From: a virus
Taxonomy: Duplodnaviria > Caudoviricetes
Length of the DNA: 64,000 nucleotides
Reading direction: 5' to 3' (one strand)
IMG/VR virus record: IMGVR_UViG_2595698451_000001
Span: 64,001 to 128,000 of that record
Shown here: in pieces, positions 27,317-39,059 of the stretch
How positions within the stretch are numbered: the stretch's first letter is position 1
How the letters are laid out: the number at the start of each line of letters is the position of its first letter
Made by a program: the position numbers and the translations under genes
The notes under the pieces: generated by a model
Database searches by the model: none
Seen by the model: only the letters and a program-made list of their open reading frames with translations
What the model was told of the DNA's origin: nothing

Positions 27317-30003
27317 GTGGGTACGACTTAACAACGAGATCATGATTCAGAAGGACGGCAAGTTCCAGTTTGAAAAGGACAAAGAAGCCGTTCATAGCTA
27401 TTTTGTGGACTATGTGAATCAGAACACTGTGTTCTTCCACAACCTTAAAGAGAAGCTTGACTACTTGATCGAAAACGAGTATTACGAAGAGGAGTTTTTA
27501 TCTAAATACTCTTTCGAGGATATCAAAGAGGTTTTCAAGCTGGCTTACAGTAAGAAGTTCCGTTTCCCTTCATTCATGAGTGCATTTAAGTTTTATAATG
27601 ACTACGCACTTAAAACAAATGACAAGAAGAAGCTGCTTGAGCGTTATGAGGACCGCATCTCTATCGTAGCTCTATTCTTTGCTGATGGGGACACTGAGAA
27701 GGCTAAGCAATACGTTGAAATGATGATCCAGCAGGACTACCAACCAAGTACACCTACATTCCTTAACGCAGGCAGAAAAAGACGTGGAGAACTTGTCAGC
27801 TGCTTCCTGATGGAAGTCGGGGACTCCCTAAATGACATCTCTAAGGCTATTGATATGTCCATGCAGCTTTCTAAATTAGGCGGAGGAGTGTCATTAAACC
27901 TTTCTAAGCTCCGTGCTAAGGGGGAAGCTATTAAAGGTGTAGAAAACGCTACTAAGGGTGTCGTAGGGGTAATGAAGCTATTAGATAATGCTTTTAGATA
28001 TGCCGATCAAATGGGTTGAGTTGGCTCCTTTCGTCAGTAATGGCGATTGAAAAACCTCTTTAATTGCTGGGAACTCCTTATGGGACAATCAGCAGCGAAG
28101 CCTCGTTTGAGGAACGTTCAACGACTAGCCGAAAGGCGTAGGCTACAAGCGATTGGTAGTCGAAATGGGAGGCATCCTTCGGGATGAAGATATAGTCTAA
28201 TCTTCATGGTAACATGAAGCAGCCATATGGCGGGACGTGCGTAGCGAACACGTCTGAATAGTCTGCAAAGACAAGGATCAGGTGCGGCATACCTAAACAT
28301 ATTCCACAGAGATATAAGTGACTTTCTCGATTAATTGGTAGTCGCCTACGGTAGCAATACAGTAGTGAAAACTTTGTGAACGCAAGCAAAAGCGGTGTCC
28401 TTATTAAGGGCTAACGGGGGAACCTCAGCGAGTAGTGTCGGTGGCAATCCCGTGCCAAGCCGAGCACCAGAGGAGGTGTTTATATGAACGCTGTATATAG
28501 GATAATAAATAAAACAAATGGAAGGTTCTACACTAGTAGGGTTAATAATCCAAGATTTAAAAACTATTACAGGTGCTCGGAAGGTGTAGAGACTAATTAG
28601 TAAGCCAGAGATTAGCACTGGTTGAAGCGCAAAGCACCCTACAGGGGTGAAGATATAGTCCAACCCTCTTAGAAATAAGGGGATAGTTGACCAAGAAAAT
28701 CTCTGCGGACGAAGATGTACGTGTGAAGACCCTCTCTATCGGTGTAGTCATCCCTGATAAGTTCGTAGAGCTTGCACGAGAAGATAAGGACGTATTTGTG
28801 TTCTATCCACACACTGTCTATAAAGAGTACGGGCAGCACATGGATGAGATGGATATGAACGAAATGTACGACAAGTTGGTTGAGAACCCTAATGTCAAGA
28901 AAGAAGCTCTAAACGCTCGTAAACTTCTTGAGAAGATGGCAATGCTCAGATCAGAGTCAGGATACCCGTACATCATGTTCCAAGACAACGTAAACAAAGT
29001 ACACGCCAATAATAACATCTCAAAAGTCAAGTTTTCAAATCTATGTTCGGAAGTTCTCCAAGCATCTCAAGTTTCTAACTACACAGACTACGATGAAGAG
29101 GATGAAATTGGATTAGATATCTCTTGTAACTTAGGTTCTATTAACATCCTGAATGTAATGAATCATAAGACGATTAAAGAAACTGTTAAGCTGGCTACAG
29201 ACTCGCTAACTAGGGTTACTGATACTACACGTATTGTCAACGCTCCGGCAGTAAACCGAGGAAACCAGCTCATGAAGTCTATTGGTTTAGGTGCAATGAA
29301 CCTGCATGGGTACCTTGCTACTAATGGAATTGCTTACGAAAGCCCTACTGCCCGGGAGTTTGCTAACGTCTTTTTCGCTGCTGTAAACTTCTACTCCATA
29401 GAGCGTTCTAACGAGATCGCTGTAGAAACAGGAGAGACATACGAAGGATTTGAAGGCTCTACATACGCTTCTGGTGAGTATTTTGACAAATACATTAACA
29501 ACAGTTTCCTACCAGAGTCAGATAAGATTAAAGAGCTATTTGAGGGTATGGAACTTCCAACTAAAGAGGACTGGGCAGCCCTTAAAAAGAAAGTTATGAA
29601 GGGCGGCATGTATCATAGTTACAGACTATGTATCGCCCCTACAGGATCAATCTCTTATGTACAGTCTAGTACGGCTTCTGTCATGCCTATCATGGAGAGA
29701 ATTGAAGAGCGTACATACGGAAACAGCAAAACCTACTACCCTATGCCGGGACTGTCCTCTAATAACTGGTTCTTCTTTAAAGAAGCTTATGACATGGATA
29801 TGTTTAACGTAGTAGACATGATCGCTACAATTCAGCAGCATGTTGACCAAGGGATTAGCTTCACATTGTTCCTTAAGGACACAATGACAACTAGAGACTT
29901 AAACAGAATCGACTTGTATGCACATCACAAAGGTATTAAGACCTTGTATTATGCGAGAACAAAAGATACAACTCAAGAAGGATGCCTATCGTGTGTAGTT
30001 TAA
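27297..30003 (+). CDS. nrdE: Class Ib RNR alpha subunit in three exons: 27297-28016, 28266-28331, 28690-30003
   Basis: Splicing restores YADQMG|QRQGSGAAYLNIFHRDISDFLD|TKKISADEDVRVK; SNLCSE; C-terminal CLSC. Confidence 0.93.
28017..28265 (+). ncRNA. Group I intron 1 of nrdE (249 nt, no ORF)
   Basis: Exon ends in U, intron ends in G; P AATTGCTGGGAA, Q AATCAGCAG, R GTTCAACGACTA, S AAGATATAGTCT; P1 GGGU/GCUC. Confidence 0.9.
28332..28689 (+). ncRNA. Group I intron 2 of nrdE (358 nt) with endonuclease relic in a loop
   Basis: U/G boundaries; guide TTGGT pairs with 3' exon ACCAA; AACGGGGGAA, AATCCCGTG, GTAGAGACTA, AAGATATAGTCC. Confidence 0.9.
28484..28600 (+). pseudogene. Internally deleted GIY-YIG homing endonuclease remnant (38 codons)
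   Basis: AGGAGG RBS then MNAVYRIINKTNGRFY, matching the GIY-YIG N-terminus. Confidence 0.65.
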
Positions 30004-34491: not shown

Positions 34492-37400
34492 TTGAAAGTT
34501 TTATTTCTACAAGATCACCTTAAAGAGAACCATGTTAAGCAAGTAGACGGAACTCTTCGTAATGTATACTTCCAAACACAGGCAGGTAAGATTCTTAAAC
34601 GTACAGCGGAGGAGACCCTCAAGCTGAAAGGGAACGAATACTACATTGACTACGCCTACCAGCTGGTTCCGAAAGTTGTACAAAGAGATAAGTTTAACCG
34701 GGCTATACGATACAAGAAAGTAAGTTTAACAGAAGCAAGACCAGAGTTTGAGCTGCTATACGAGAGAATTATCAGGGAGAAGCCAGATATTATAGTCCCA
34801 CAAGGGAACCTTGGATGCAGTGCATTACTCAAGAAAAATGGAATCAAGTCACTTAGAGGCGTCCCTCAAAAGGTTGTTGTTAGGCACGGTAATGCCTCCC
34901 ATGAAACATGGGTACTCCCTACATTTAGTATTGAGCACATGTTAGTAGACTACAAGGTCAACAACCTTGTTGCTGCCGATTTTAGCACGTTAGGAAAGTA
35001 CATTGAACAAGGGGATGTAGCGTTTGAATCGGAGAATCGGGACTACGAATTTGTAGACAGCATCAAGCGGGTTAGAGAAATTTTTAAAACGATCTTGCCC
35101 GCTGCTCCTATTGTCGCATGGGACTTAGAGACCAATACGTTACATCCCGAAAAAGCTGGAGCAAAGCCACTCGTTATCTCCTTGTCTTGGCAGGAGGGTA
35201 CTGGGTGTACCATACCGCTAGAACATAAAGAGTTTACATGGATTCCCGGGCATTTAGCGGAGATATACGAGCACATAAAGGCATTCGTAGCTGACCCAGA
35301 TATAATCAAAGTAGGTCATAACCTGCAGTACGACATACGGTTCCTACAACTCACTAAAGGGTTTAGAGACTTTCATAACCATCGGGATACCAAGGTCATG
35401 TACTACCTACTCGTGGATCAGGATAAAGACGCTTCATTGAAGTTGAGTAACCTGAGCTATGAAATGACTGATATGGGCGGATACGACAAACCCTTAGAAG
35501 ACTTCAAGAAAAAATACGTAGAAGACTATGTTGCTAAAGAGCGAGCTCGAATCAACCAGTTGAAAGAGGATTACAAGAAAGCAGTAGCTAAAGAAAGAGC
35601 CTTAGCCAAAAAGGAGAAAAGGAAAGCGCAATTACCTCCTAAACCAAAGTTCCCTAAAGTTACTCCTCCTGTAAACGAGATAGATGGTAGTGACTTTAAC
35701 TATGAATGGATTCCTTTAGAAAGCATGTTATCTCCTTACGCATCTGGAGACGTTGACGCTTGTCTACGTATACATAACTTTTTAGAGAAGAAAGGTCAAG
35801 CAGAAGAGAACGCTAAAATTCGAAAGCTGTACACTGAGCATTATACAGAGTTGTCCGCATACCTCGCTAAGGTAGAGGCTGCGGGGGTCCAAATGAACAC
35901 GGATTACACCAGAGGACTTATTGATGCATATACAGAAGAAGAAGACAGACTTCTTCAGCTGATCCGTAAGTTCCCAGAAGTGCAGAGACTTGAAGAAGAG
36001 CATGAGGCACTATACATGAAAGGTTTAGAAGAGTGGTCTAAGCCGAAAGCCATGCGGAATGAAGAAATTGCAAAGCTACGTGATAAGTACAAAAAGAAGC
36101 TAGTCTTCAACCCAAACTCCTCAGACGACAAACAGAAGGCTCTATATAAGTACACTGGATACAGACTCCCATACAACAAAGAGTTGGTTGTTAAGTCCGC
36201 TTTTGAGGATGGAATAAGTGAGGATGAGTTAGAGTGGTATCACTATAAAGCGGATAAGACAGCTTTAGAGTACATCAAAGAGAACTTTGAGGACCTCAAA
36301 GAATTAGCTGACCTGCTGCTAACCCACTCGTTGGTTAAGACTCGGAAACAGAACTTTACATATAAGCTGTTAGACTTAGTAAATGACAAGAAGCGGCTGT
36401 ATGGTACGTTTAACCCTACAGGTACTGAGACTACACGTCTTTCCTCTAGGGACCCTAAGTAGAATTGGGGTATCTCGGTGAATTGCGGGGACATCCTTAG
36501 AGCTCCATTTACCAAGCTATACTGGAAACAGATATAGTGGCTGAACTAACTACTCAGGTAAGGTAAAAAGAATGGAGATTGGGCAAGTAAGGTTTTGGTT
36601 GTCACCCTAAATATTGGTTGAAGTGCTATATTACATTTAGAAACCAACCAATACTTTAAGAGGTGAAGTTAAAATGAGTTTTAAAGAGATTATGGACGGA
36701 TTACTTTTAGGAGATGGGTGTTTACGAAAGACAGCTAGAACAGCTAAGTACACTCACTCAGCTAAACACGAGGATTATCTTCTGTGGATTAAAAATTTCT
36801 TGGAAAAAGAAGGAGTTTCCTTTACACCTAAGATTTATAGGAAAGACGAAGGAAGAGGAATTTACTATCAGCTCCATTCAAGAGTACATGAAAGGTTAAC
36901 CGAAGAGTACCATAGGTGGTACACTGAGGAGGGTAAAAAGATATTACCTTCTGACCTAAAATTAACTCCTCTATCTGCTAAGCATTGGTATATAGGGGAC
37001 GGAGGTTTAGACTCCGACAAGGGTTACTTAAGACAAATAAGTTTTGCCGCTCATTCGTTTTCTTACGAAGAAAGAGATTATTTAGTGGCACAGCTTAAAG
37101 AGCTAGGGTTTAAAGCAAGTAACCGAAAAAGAGGTCAGATATGTATAGCTAAAAGTTCCGTTAAAGACTTTATTGATTGGATTGGAGAATGTCCTACTAA
37201 GTCTTACGAGTACAAGTGGGAATTAACCAAGTACCAATCAAAACAACCAAAATACCGAAAGCTCTGATGGATAATCCGCAGCCAAGCCTCTGAAATGCCG
37301 ATAAGTATGAGGAAGGTTCAACGACTAGATTGTGAGCTAGGCAAAGCAATAATCAATCATTAGTGCCGAGAGTTATGTAAACGGGCTGTGTATCTGAAGG

Positions 37401-39059
37401 AGGAAAAATGGAATTAATCTGGAAAGACATTCCTGAAGCTGAAGGATACGCAATAAGCAACACAGGTAAAGTTAAAAACAAGAGTACAGGTAAAATTTTA
37501 AAGACATGGGTTAATAATAGCGGTTATGAGTGTATAAAGATCAACACAAAAAAGGCAAAATTCAGAGATACAATACACCGGATAGTTGCCAAAGCTTTCT
37601 GTGAAGGTTATAAGGAAGGGTTAGTGGTAAATCATATTGACACTAATCGACTTAATAACCACGCTTCCAACTTAGAGTGGATGACTTACAAAGAAAGTAT
37701 CTCAGAAATGAAAGATCGTAATGCGCTGAATACTCATACAGCCAGAGAAGCCCATAAAAAGAACCTGATAAAGAAAGTAGATATGTATAGTAAAGACGGA
37801 AAAACTTTCTTAAAAACATTCGATTCTATACGAGAAGCCGCTAAGGAATCGGGTGCTCGTCCTGAAAAGATAACTGAAACAATTAAAGGACGAAGGTTTA
37901 CTGCGGGAGGGCATCACTGGAAGTACAATAACCCCAAAGACAACTACTCTTACTATACAAAAGGAACACGATGAAAGTATACACTAGCCCGTATACATAG
38001 CAAGATATAGTCTACTCCGACTGGTACAGCCAGTGTTAAAGTATCTCGAAAGAGACGGTATACAGGAACTTACAGCAGATTCCAAGGAAGACAGGGAACG
38101 TTAAGCGGTTCGACTACAAGCACCCTATTAAACGGATGTTTGTTACAAGCTTCCCGGGAGGAGCCCTATTACAGCTTGACTACAGCTCCCTAGAGTCTCG
38201 TATCTTAGGTTTGGCGGCTGGGGACGAAGAGATGACTCAACAGTTCTTAGATGGACGAGACTTGCACAAAGAGACAGCAACCTTCGTATACGGAGTGTCT
38301 ATGGACCAAGTTACTGAAGACATGCGTTCCATGGCTAAAGCCGTAACATTCGGACTCGCATACGGGGAGACTCCTTTCTCCTTCGCACCGAAAAACAACA
38401 TGTCCGTTGAAGAAGCTGAAGTCATCTTCCAGAAATACTTCCAGAACAAGCCGAAAGTTAAACAGTTCATTGACGCTACACACGAACAAGTGAAAAAAGA
38501 TGGTTTTGTAGAGTGTATGCAAGGATTCAGACGGAACCTACGTAATGTGTTCTCACAAGATAAGTCAAAAGTAAACGAAGCCCTACGTCAATCTGTAAAC
38601 ACCAAGATTCAGGGTTCAGGGGCATTCTTAACGAACTCTTCTGTAATTCTGATCATTAAGTTCATTGAGAAGAACAACTTGCGTTCTAAAGTCGTTCTAA
38701 CAGTACATGACTCCATCGTAATCGACTGCCCGCCGGAAGAAATCCATATCATGGCACATGCAGCTAAACACATCATGGAGAACTTACCTATCGACTGGTT
38801 GTTCATCGACTGGAAAGGCGAGAGACTTCGTTATCCAATCAAAGCTGATGTTGAGATCGGTACTAACTACAATGACATGGTTGCTTACGACAAAGATGAT
38901 CTTAACAGCTTTAAAACGGTCCAGAAATACTGTGACTTCTACTTAGCTAAGAAGGAAATCAAGAACCACAAAGAGACAGGAACTATCACTAAAGAGCGGT
39001 ATGAGGAGCTTAAAGAGCTTATCGACAGCCGTAAACCAGCTTACCAAGAAGCTGTATAA
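34492..39059 (+). CDS. polA: Family A DNA polymerase with UDG-like N-terminus and 3'-5' exonuclease; exons 34492-36456 and 38067-39059
   Basis: DLET, HNLQYD, YASGD; splicing restores TTRLSSRDP|NLQQIP; DYSSLESR, KAVTFGLAYG, VHDS. Confidence 0.93.
36674..37267 (+). CDS. Intron-encoded double-motif LAGLIDADG homing endonuclease
   Basis: IMDGLLLGDG and HWYIGDGG motifs. Confidence 0.88.
   Translation: MSFKEIMDGLLLGDGCLRKTARTAKYTHSAKHEDYLLWIKNFLEKEGVSFTPKIYRKDEGRGIYYQLHSRVHERLTEEYHRWYTEEGKKILPSDLKLTPLSAKHWYIGDGGLDSDKGYLRQISFAAHSFSYEERDYLVAQLKELGFKASNRKRGQICIAKSSVKDFIDWIGECPTKSYEYKWELTKYQSKQPKYRKL
37408..37974 (+). CDS. Intron-encoded NUMOD4-HNH endonuclease (I-HmuI-like)
   Basis: WKDIP..YAISNTGKV, IHRIVA.AF, VNHID.NRLNN..NLEW, FDSIREAAK. 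Confidence 0.9.
   Translation: MELIWKDIPEAEGYAISNTGKVKNKSTGKILKTWVNNSGYECIKINTKKAKFRDTIHRIVAKAFCEGYKEGLVVNHIDTNRLNNHASNLEWMTYKESISEMKDRNALNTHTAREAHKKNLIKKVDMYSKDGKTFLKTFDSIREAAKESGARPEKITETIKGRRFTAGGHHWKYNNPKDNYSYYTKGTR

Follow-up and report, generated by a model that had tools for sequence, protein, structure and literature searches.

The window analysed here is a 64,000-nucleotide (nt) stretch of viral DNA, covering bases 64001-128000 of a phage record (IMG/VR IMGVR_UViG_2595698451_000001) that is 155.6 kb long and has terminal repeats, and the subject of this report is its family A DNA polymerase gene, which is split by a group I intron. Two open reading frames (ORFs) lie within this intron: one encodes a LAGLIDADG protein, and is carried on a compact cassette; the other encodes an HNH protein resembling I-HmuI. 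The nearest relatives listed for the window's genome are Bacillus subtilis phages of the Herelleviridae/Bastillevirinae (Nitunavirus BSP15, SBSphiJ1-7, SPG24). The parts of the gene and of its intron are collected in Table 1.

A preliminary description, made from the sequence alone, had proposed that splicing of 36456 to 38067 restores RLSSRDP/NLQQIP (slashes mark junctions throughout). The exon ends, the Pfam DNA_pol_A profile, which ends at its position 126 in exon 1 and restarts at 127 in exon 2, and the SPG24 allele agree on this junction. An in-frame TAG stop codon lies downstream of exon 1 at 36460-36462, two codons inside the intron. The intron boundaries are set by the intronless polymerase allele of SPG24, which is collinear over the gap and in which window position 36458 is followed directly by 38067, the joint being ambiguous by 2 nt (AA); as judged by the profile and by the SPG24 allele, removal of 36457-38066 gives back an uninterrupted polymerase gene. 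On these sequence comparisons, 36457-38066 is confirmed as one group I intron at the DP/NLQ motif of the family A polymerase gene. The group I hallmark is in place (the U36456-G36467 pair inside P1 and the terminal intron base G38066), and duplex calculation finds P1, P3, P4, P5, P7 and P8 all able to pair in segments of the window. A promoter and terminator scan of 36300-38200 returned two promoter-like sites, with 3.8 expected, and no terminator.

Table 1. The polymerase gene of the window, its intron and the intron's components (window coordinates; bp, base pairs; aa, amino acids)
Feature	Position	Strand	Remarks
Family A DNA polymerase exon 1	34492-36456	+	3'-5' exonuclease domain and start of polymerase domain; ends ...RLSSRDP
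Group I intron	36457-38066	+	1610 nt; U36456 precedes the 5' splice site; G38066 is the final base
Internal guide sequence	36463-36472	+	7-bp P1 with 36452-36458, including the U36456-G36467 wobble; duplex -9.6 kcal/mol
P3 5' strand	36472-36480	+	partner 37362-37372; -11.6 kcal/mol
P element (P4 5' strand)	36483-36490	+	pairs with Q, 37274-37281; -9.2 kcal/mol
P5 5' strand and P5a-c extension	36491-36582	+	P5a helix ends right before GATTGG, the cassette insertion point
LAGLIDADG cassette	36583-37270	+	688 bp; position ambiguous by 3 nt (TGG repeat)
Q element (P4 3' strand)	37274-37281	+	a few nt 3' of the cassette; within the putative LAGLIDADG target
P6/P6a and R element GTTCAACGACTAGA (37316-37329; P7 5' strand)	37281-37329	+	RF00028 alignment
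P8 5' arm	37373-37393	+	duplex with 37979-38000; -25.9 kcal/mol
HNH insert in P8 loop	37394-37978	+	Shine-Dalgarno GGAGGA; ORF 37408-37974, 188 aa, I-HmuI-like
P8 3' arm	37979-38000	+	pairs with 37373-37393; P8 of 20 bp
S element CAAGATATAGTC (P7 3' strand), P9 and 3' terminal region	38001-38066	+	RF00028 alignment
Polymerase exon 2	38067-39059	+	begins NLQQIP; open to the stop codon; DNA_pol_A profile 127-380, 7.6e-62

The intron contains a single ribozyme core. At its gathering threshold, the Rfam search of the window missed the polymerase intron. A permissive search returned two complementary fragments of the RF00028 model (positions 58-150 at 37181-37329, 19.2 bits; positions 221-251 at 38002-38031, 13.1 bits), only fragments being recovered because two inserts of ~0.6-0.7 kb split the core; neither a duplicated core fragment nor a second P/Q/R/S set was found in the intron up to E=10. 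The introns of SIOphi, SBSphiJ4, Mawwa and SBSphiJ2, which lack the ORFs or retain only remnants, match the full model (1-253) at 63.6-66.7 bits (gathering score 50). Natural ORF-less alleles are 94-98% identical to the window in the shared core, and alleles naturally without either insert use identical splice sites. Since the ORF-less relatives match the whole RF00028 model, there is one ribozyme core and neither a twintron nor a mini-exon. The stretch between the two ORFs, 37268-37393, consists of Q, P6, R, the P3 3' strand and the P8 5' arm and is not exon-like. A twintron, or two adjacent introns, was considered as a candidate and rejected on the single core, the lack of an internal exon and the 91 non-coding nt of the cassette. 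The single set of core elements reported in the preliminary description has thus held up against the group I covariance model proposed there as a check, and the second core or mini-exon named there as refuting findings are absent from the intron. Of the 20 predicted pairs of the P5a helix, 12 stay paired despite changes on both sides among the five related introns compared, and these compensatory changes support the helix.

The LAGLIDADG ORF lies between P and Q, as had been described. When the window is aligned with BSP15 and with SBSphiJ1, the match is interrupted at 36582/37268 and its two halves overlap by 3 nt; this puts the cassette at 688 bp. It begins with a 91-nt leader carrying the Shine-Dalgarno sequence AGAGGTGA, continues with the ORF (36674-37267; 197 aa, two LAGLIDADG motifs), which accounts for 594 of the 688 bp, and has no 3' non-coding sequence, the stop codon standing at the cassette's edge. 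Its 91 non-coding nt are too few to accommodate a second core. The P5a helix immediately precedes the cassette and P5'/P4' follows it; the terminal GATGG of the cassette rebuilds the P5 3' strand. The protein matches LAGLIDADG_2 (PF03161, 6.4e-25) and PHROG 11023 (8.5e-61); its motifs are LLLGDG (D14) and WYIGDGG (D109), and G13, D14, G15, G108 and D109 are invariant across 25 family members (the window protein and 24 relatives). The AlphaFold2 model (predicted local distance difference test 93.7) has the expected two-domain alpha-beta-beta-alpha-beta-beta-alpha order. Its best PDB match is I-SceI (template modelling (TM) score 0.75, E 5.6e-11); I-WcaI is the other closest fold, and bI3 and I-AniI are also among the fold matches. 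As judged from sequence and model, the protein looks functional. The cassette leader (36583-36673) is predicted to fold so as to pair the Shine-Dalgarno sequence with TCACCCT (-20.4 kcal/mol), with a z-score, -1.32, that is not significant; such a fold could serve translational control of the nuclease. Translational control is familiar from T4 intron nucleases.

The second ORF, described earlier as I-HmuI-like and enclosed by P8, proved to be just that: the two arms pair as given in Table 1, and the protein matches I-HmuI (PDB 1u3e) at 2.2e-27 over residues 4-173 of 188. Its Pfam matches are NUMOD4 (3e-10), HNH_3 (1.1e-8) and, below the cut-off, I-HmuI NUMOD-like (1.1e-4), and by profile it belongs to PHROG 59. 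The HNH protein is 97-100% identical among five phages spanning three genera. Comparison of the window with BSP12, which belongs to a different genus, yields 97.6-100% identity for segments of the intron and 121/162 and 139/184 (~75%) for the adjoining exons. From near-identical introns in exons this divergent it follows that the whole element moved between polymerase alleles, and the contrast fits HNH-driven homing into these alleles. In SBSphiJ2 (locus L003, 981-983) and in SBSphiJ4 (L004, 906-908) the HNH ORF is deleted with both ends left as remnants, the missing segments corresponding to window 37471-37958 and 37396-37947, respectively; these are stages in the decay of a nuclease gene inside an otherwise intact intron.

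The distribution of the two inserts among relatives was read from 38 phage records that match 36300-38250 (four phages being counted twice, in GenBank and in RefSeq), with allele states assigned by covered share and span and nine polymerase loci checked by BLAST. Both ORFs are present at the polymerase site in one record, BSP12, at 95% identity. The HNH ORF alone is found in five (BSP15, SBSphiJ1/3/6 and TimeGriffin), an intron without an intact ORF in 12 (four with HNH remnants, eight with a short P8), and no intron at this position in nine, including SPG24; BSP9 has the cassette alone, at another locus, and ten records match only partially. The HNH and LAGLIDADG inserts thus come and go independently among close relatives, and the two-ORF architecture, at 1/38 matching records, is rare rather than common. 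The alignment with related phages accordingly speaks against an architecture already common in relatives, which the preliminary description had named as a refuting finding, and bears out its proposal, on the independent presence and absence of the inserts and the recurrence of the cassette in another intron, that the intron was probably invaded twice. The polymerase genes of relatives are also interrupted elsewhere. Further upstream, an exon 1 of 1140 nt is annotated in BSP12, SBSphiJ4, SIOphi, Mawwa and TimeGriffin, and an extra downstream intron with another HNH or a hypothetical ORF is present in BSP12, BSP15 and SPG24 (loci L001, 523-4901, L002 and L006); the window's polymerase gene is without these additional interruptions.

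The other locus is the gene for the terminase large subunit. In BSP9, whose polymerase site is intronless, the cassette lies in an intron of the terminase gene, at a point homologous to the P5/P4' junction of the window's intron. The cassettes of the window and BSP9 are identical at 681/685 nt (99.4%), the flanking intron cores at 81/129 and 88/142 (~62%), and the exons are unrelated. A cassette so nearly identical, set in cores so divergent and in unrelated exons, leads to intron DNA as the putative LAGLIDADG target. The window, BSP12 and BSP9 encode the same protein (100% identity), so the three variable sites in the ORF are synonymous. The empty allele of the BSP9 intron also exists: the terminase intron of BSP21 lacks exactly 688 bp (a match of 1493 nt to the BSP9 query of 2181 nt), and its flanks are identical to those of BSP9 at 511/511 and 1587/1589 positions. 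The two empty sites, ...GGAGATTGG/ATAATCCGCAGCC and ...AAGGATTGG/GTAATCCGCAGCC, agree at 17/18 positions from -6 to +12. Among 26 records that match the BSP9 terminase intron, BSP9 is the only one with both ORFs of that intron; four are shorter by exactly 688 bp (BSP21, SBSphiJ5 and SPG24 in two records), nine have an ORF-less intron (including Grass and SIOphi), three are intronless (BSTP3, BSP10 and BSP15), BSP12 matches in the cassette only, and eight match partially. The terminase gene of the window's genome has no intron. In the window's genome, BSP9 and BSP12, no unoccupied target-like site (≤3 mismatches of 19) is present besides the occupied junction, the outcome expected because a cutting enzyme should leave none. 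RNA-library contigs from one run (X1) likewise contain the cassette within a BSP9-like terminase context. The earlier proposal of separate targets for the two nucleases agrees with these comparisons, in which the cassette is shared across unrelated exons and the whole intron across polymerase alleles.

Several observations touch on the terminase intron and on other introns of the window. The second ORF of the BSP9 terminase intron (L007, 3336-4244; 302 aa, annotated 'homing endonuclease') also lies in P8 and is unlike the window's HNH ORF; its Pfam matches are a CapR homology domain (2.2e-7) and a weak treble-clef zinc finger, and nothing else, and these domains point to a third nuclease type co-resident with the same LAGLIDADG cassette. 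Grass has an ORF-less terminase intron (L021), which at ~505-515 reads GGATAGGG where BSP21 has GGATTGGG, inside the putative LAGLIDADG target; this could be a resistant variant. In the window itself, the gene for the large subunit of ribonucleotide reductase contains a full-model RF00028 match at 27970-28219 (94 bits) and a second group I match at 28556-28682 (33 bits), with coding sequence between the two introns. The P5/P4' sequence of the first of these, GGGACAATCAGCAGCGAAGCC, is unlike the putative LAGLIDADG target, and that intron is without the cassette.

More distant relatives of the LAGLIDADG protein were sought more widely. The nearest further relatives in the phage collection are <30% identical, and a large protein database holds 227 relatives of up to 89% identity. 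A scan of viral contigs with the single protein found none; an alignment-based scan did find relatives, and 27 loci encoding them were recovered (18 viral contigs and nine genomes). In three of these (L040, L023 and L022) the ORF occupies the interval from P to Q in a group I core, at the same GATTGG...GATGGACAATC site. The L040 ORF (65% identity) is in the sense orientation, with no other ORF in its intron; those of L023 (47%) and L022 (42%) are antisense to their introns. L040 (2280-3290) is a contig of a Lachnospiraceae metagenome-assembled genome, and its intron lies in a region of phage-like structural genes; the P5 extension of this intron is very like the one in the BSP9 terminase intron, and an 8-nt repeat, TGGACAAT, flanks the insert. 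L023 (2426-3016) and L022 (2501-3118) are IMG/VR contigs, and the gene split by the L023 intron, immediately after ...TVHD, is polymerase-like. A nuclease gene that lies antisense in a phage intron would have to be served by a promoter of its own.

The anatomy of the intron, its single core, the precise boundaries of the insertions, the independent presence and absence of the inserts and the contrasts of identity are observed; the cleavage activities of both enzymes and the target site are deduced from filled and empty alleles and from those contrasts. Together they make it probable that the intron is a nested mobile element of three layers: a ribozyme, an HNH driver and a later LAGLIDADG cassette. 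The first layer would be the one group I ribozyme at the conserved DP/NLQ motif, removing itself from the polymerase mRNA. The second would be the I-HmuI-like HNH enzyme encoded in P8, the intron's own homing driver, which would nick polymerase alleles near the insertion site, with repair then copying in the entire intron. The third, the 688-bp cassette with its own ribosome-binding site, would have arrived later, on the 3' side of the P5 extension and before P5'/P4'. Its enzyme would cut cassette-free copies of the intron family in the DNA of the P5/P4 junction (GATTGG/RTAATCCGCAGCC), and repair of the cut by copying in the cassette would let it spread between introns irrespective of the host gene. 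On the sequence comparisons, the cassette most likely homes into ribozyme-core DNA and not into the host gene. We lean slightly towards a broader proposition, that this LAGLIDADG lineage is a dedicated parasite of ribozymes that recognises the P5/P4 (Q) core DNA of one family of phage group I introns. Its target sequence would be kept constant by RNA catalysis instead of by protein coding, and a nuclease gene with a target fixed in this way would therefore be able to jump among introns of unrelated genes: among polymerase, terminase and other genes, in distant phages, in either orientation and on top of an existing intron nuclease.

The same facts have been read otherwise, and might be. According to the reading printed for the Pol intron of phage phiNIT1, there would be two distinct introns, successive colonists separated by a mini-exon or forming a twintron, each with its own nuclease. 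That a second core of the required size could be hidden in a cassette of 688 bp, 594 of them ORF, with a 91-nt leader and nothing non-coding at the 3' end, is hardly conceivable; the core search to E=10 did not find one, the segment between the ORFs is core and P8 sequence with nothing exon-like, the natural BSP15 allele without the cassette keeps the splice sites, and in alleles with neither ORF the RF00028 match is complete. This reading we consider extremely improbable. A very improbable one, too, is that both nucleases are aimed at the polymerase gene in its intronless or heterologous alleles, forming a double weapon for one and the same homing or exclusion event, with the copy in the terminase intron incidental. 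Competition between the intron nucleases of SPO1 and SP82 is known. An anti-competitor role of intron nucleases is raised in the Discussion of PMC11878797 (Weglewska et al., NAR 2025; consulted in part). However, the cassette in BSP9 and its relatives in L040, L023 and L022 are surrounded by unrelated exons, the edges of the cassette match intron-core sequence and stand ~125 nt and ~800 nt from the exon junctions, and the exons show no pattern that depends on the LAGLIDADG gene.

It deserves rather more consideration, though it is still unlikely, that the LAGLIDADG protein serves as a maturase or is carried along inactive, and that the cassette was moved by ordinary or microhomology recombination in mixed infections. 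The BSP9 and BSP12 copies carry the GenBank label 'putative RNA maturase', LAGLIDADG maturases are known, with bI3 and I-AniI, as noted, among the fold matches, and ~20 nt of identical Q/P6 sequence lie on the 3' side of the site. On the 5' side, however, only 6 nt are identical at the insertion point, which makes the pair a poor substrate for homologous recombination. Both aspartates of the catalytic motifs are invariant in the family, the nearest folds, I-SceI and I-WcaI, are those of active nucleases, and, as stated in the portion of PMC11878797 consulted, no protein was needed for self-splicing of the phiNIT1 Pol intron in vitro. Three more introns carry an insert at the same site, in both orientations; a site-specific break fits this better than chance recombination does.

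A number of observations weigh against the three-layer element or against its extension to a ribozyme parasite. The cassette could in principle be moved without a nuclease, if two introns recombined ectopically along their conserved Q/P6 stretches. The known near-identical cassette copies are three (window, BSP12 and BSP9) and represent two insertion sites, a small sample. The occupied right junction still fits the target at 16/19 positions, and the carrier's escape from self-cleavage is thus unexplained. The HNH ORF has the motif VVNH...NN...N where I-HmuI has VVDH in the alignment. Among the 27 loci encoding LAGLIDADG relatives, the P5-site context is found at the three named above, a P8 context at two, which share one sequence and are 29% identical to the window protein, and no core motifs, by the patterns used, at 22; with three such contexts in 27, the association with the site is confined to part of the closer clade. 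The LAGLIDADG-only intron of L040 suggests that this enzyme family might also mobilise whole introns. RNA-library contigs from four runs contain the joints 36579 to 37268 (three runs), 36455 to 38070 (four) and 37393 to 37994 (one), and every one of these is also a natural DNA allele, so that splicing and an intronless allele are indistinguishable in them.

The question of how a ribozyme and a nuclease gene come together as a mobile intron is an old one, and the answers to it have been mostly circumstantial. Natural before and after alleles of invasion by a nuclease gene, at two introns and with flanks 99-100% identical, make the invasion directly testable in phages of Bacillus subtilis, for which a single protein and a handful of DNA substrates would do. 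If the target is as proposed, recognition of the ribozyme core would explain how one nuclease gene spreads over different host genes, and a nuclease of this kind would add a layer of competition among the selfish elements inside phage genomes. In the literature searched, no phage intron nuclease that targets ribozyme-core DNA was found, which is not proof of absence.

The two-ORF architecture is already known, from the BSP12 GenBank record and from phiNIT1 (Nitunavirus), whose Pol intron, with coding sequences of PHROGs P59 and P11023, figures in the survey of Bastillevirinae introns by Weglewska et al. (PMC11878797). In both the phiNIT1 intron and the window's, the pair is P59 (HNH) with P11023 (LAGLIDADG). 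According to the part of that survey consulted, the phiNIT1 Pol intron is self-splicing in vitro, undergoes splicing in vivo in mid-infection and is interpreted as two distinct introns; the present data argue against this interpretation, and for the polymerase intron the printed two-intron reading is corrected. A likeness extends to the ribonucleotide reductase gene: phiNIT1 rNDPL, as described in the same part, has two introns and a small exon, and the window's gene is alike. The consulted text of PMC11878797 makes no mention of BSP9 or BSP12 (0 occurrences), of the 688-bp cassette, of the P5/P4' site or of a recurrence in a terminase intron. What is added here is the demonstration of a single core, the exact cassette, its recurrence in a second intron with near-identical empty alleles, and the putative ribozyme-core target.

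Among better-studied introns, those of the SPO1/SP82 type (I-HmuI/I-HmuII; PDB 1u3e) resemble the window's in being group I, in interrupting a family A polymerase gene of the Herelleviridae and in carrying an HNH/NUMOD ORF in a peripheral loop; identity between I-HmuI and the window's HNH protein is ~40% (by eye in the alignment). Unlike them, the window's intron has a second, unrelated nuclease gene. That gene is of a kind the preliminary description had called uncommon in phage introns; this is in keeping with the usual phage-intron nucleases as listed in the part of PMC3984707 consulted, GIY-YIG, HNH, PD-(D/E)xK and EDxHD, from which LAGLIDADG is missing. The window's LAGLIDADG protein shares with I-SceI (PDB 1r7m) the monomeric two-motif LAGLIDADG_2 fold, at the TM score given above (phmmer 4.5e-4) and 23-25% identity; the intron of I-SceI lies in a yeast mitochondrial rRNA gene, and the enzyme cuts the intronless form of that gene. 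The 'biorfic' group I introns of fungal mitochondria (PMC3847072 and PMC7487136, consulted in part) likewise have two nuclease genes per intron, and LAGLIDADG_2 genes that move between introns of the same type; they belong to a eukaryotic organelle and the movement is deduced from phylogeny, whereas the present case is a phage intron with an HNH and a LAGLIDADG gene and near-identical alleles from before and after. The closest parallel in mechanism is the invasion model of Loizos et al. 1994 for T4 sunY/I-TevII (as recounted in the consulted part of PMC3984707), in which, as proposed here, a nuclease gene enters an intron at a sequence that its own nuclease recognises. In T4 the flanks of the ORF resemble the exon target, and the evidence was cleavage of a synthetic fusion of those flanks; here alleles with and without the insert exist in nature for two introns, and the putative target is ribozyme-core DNA.

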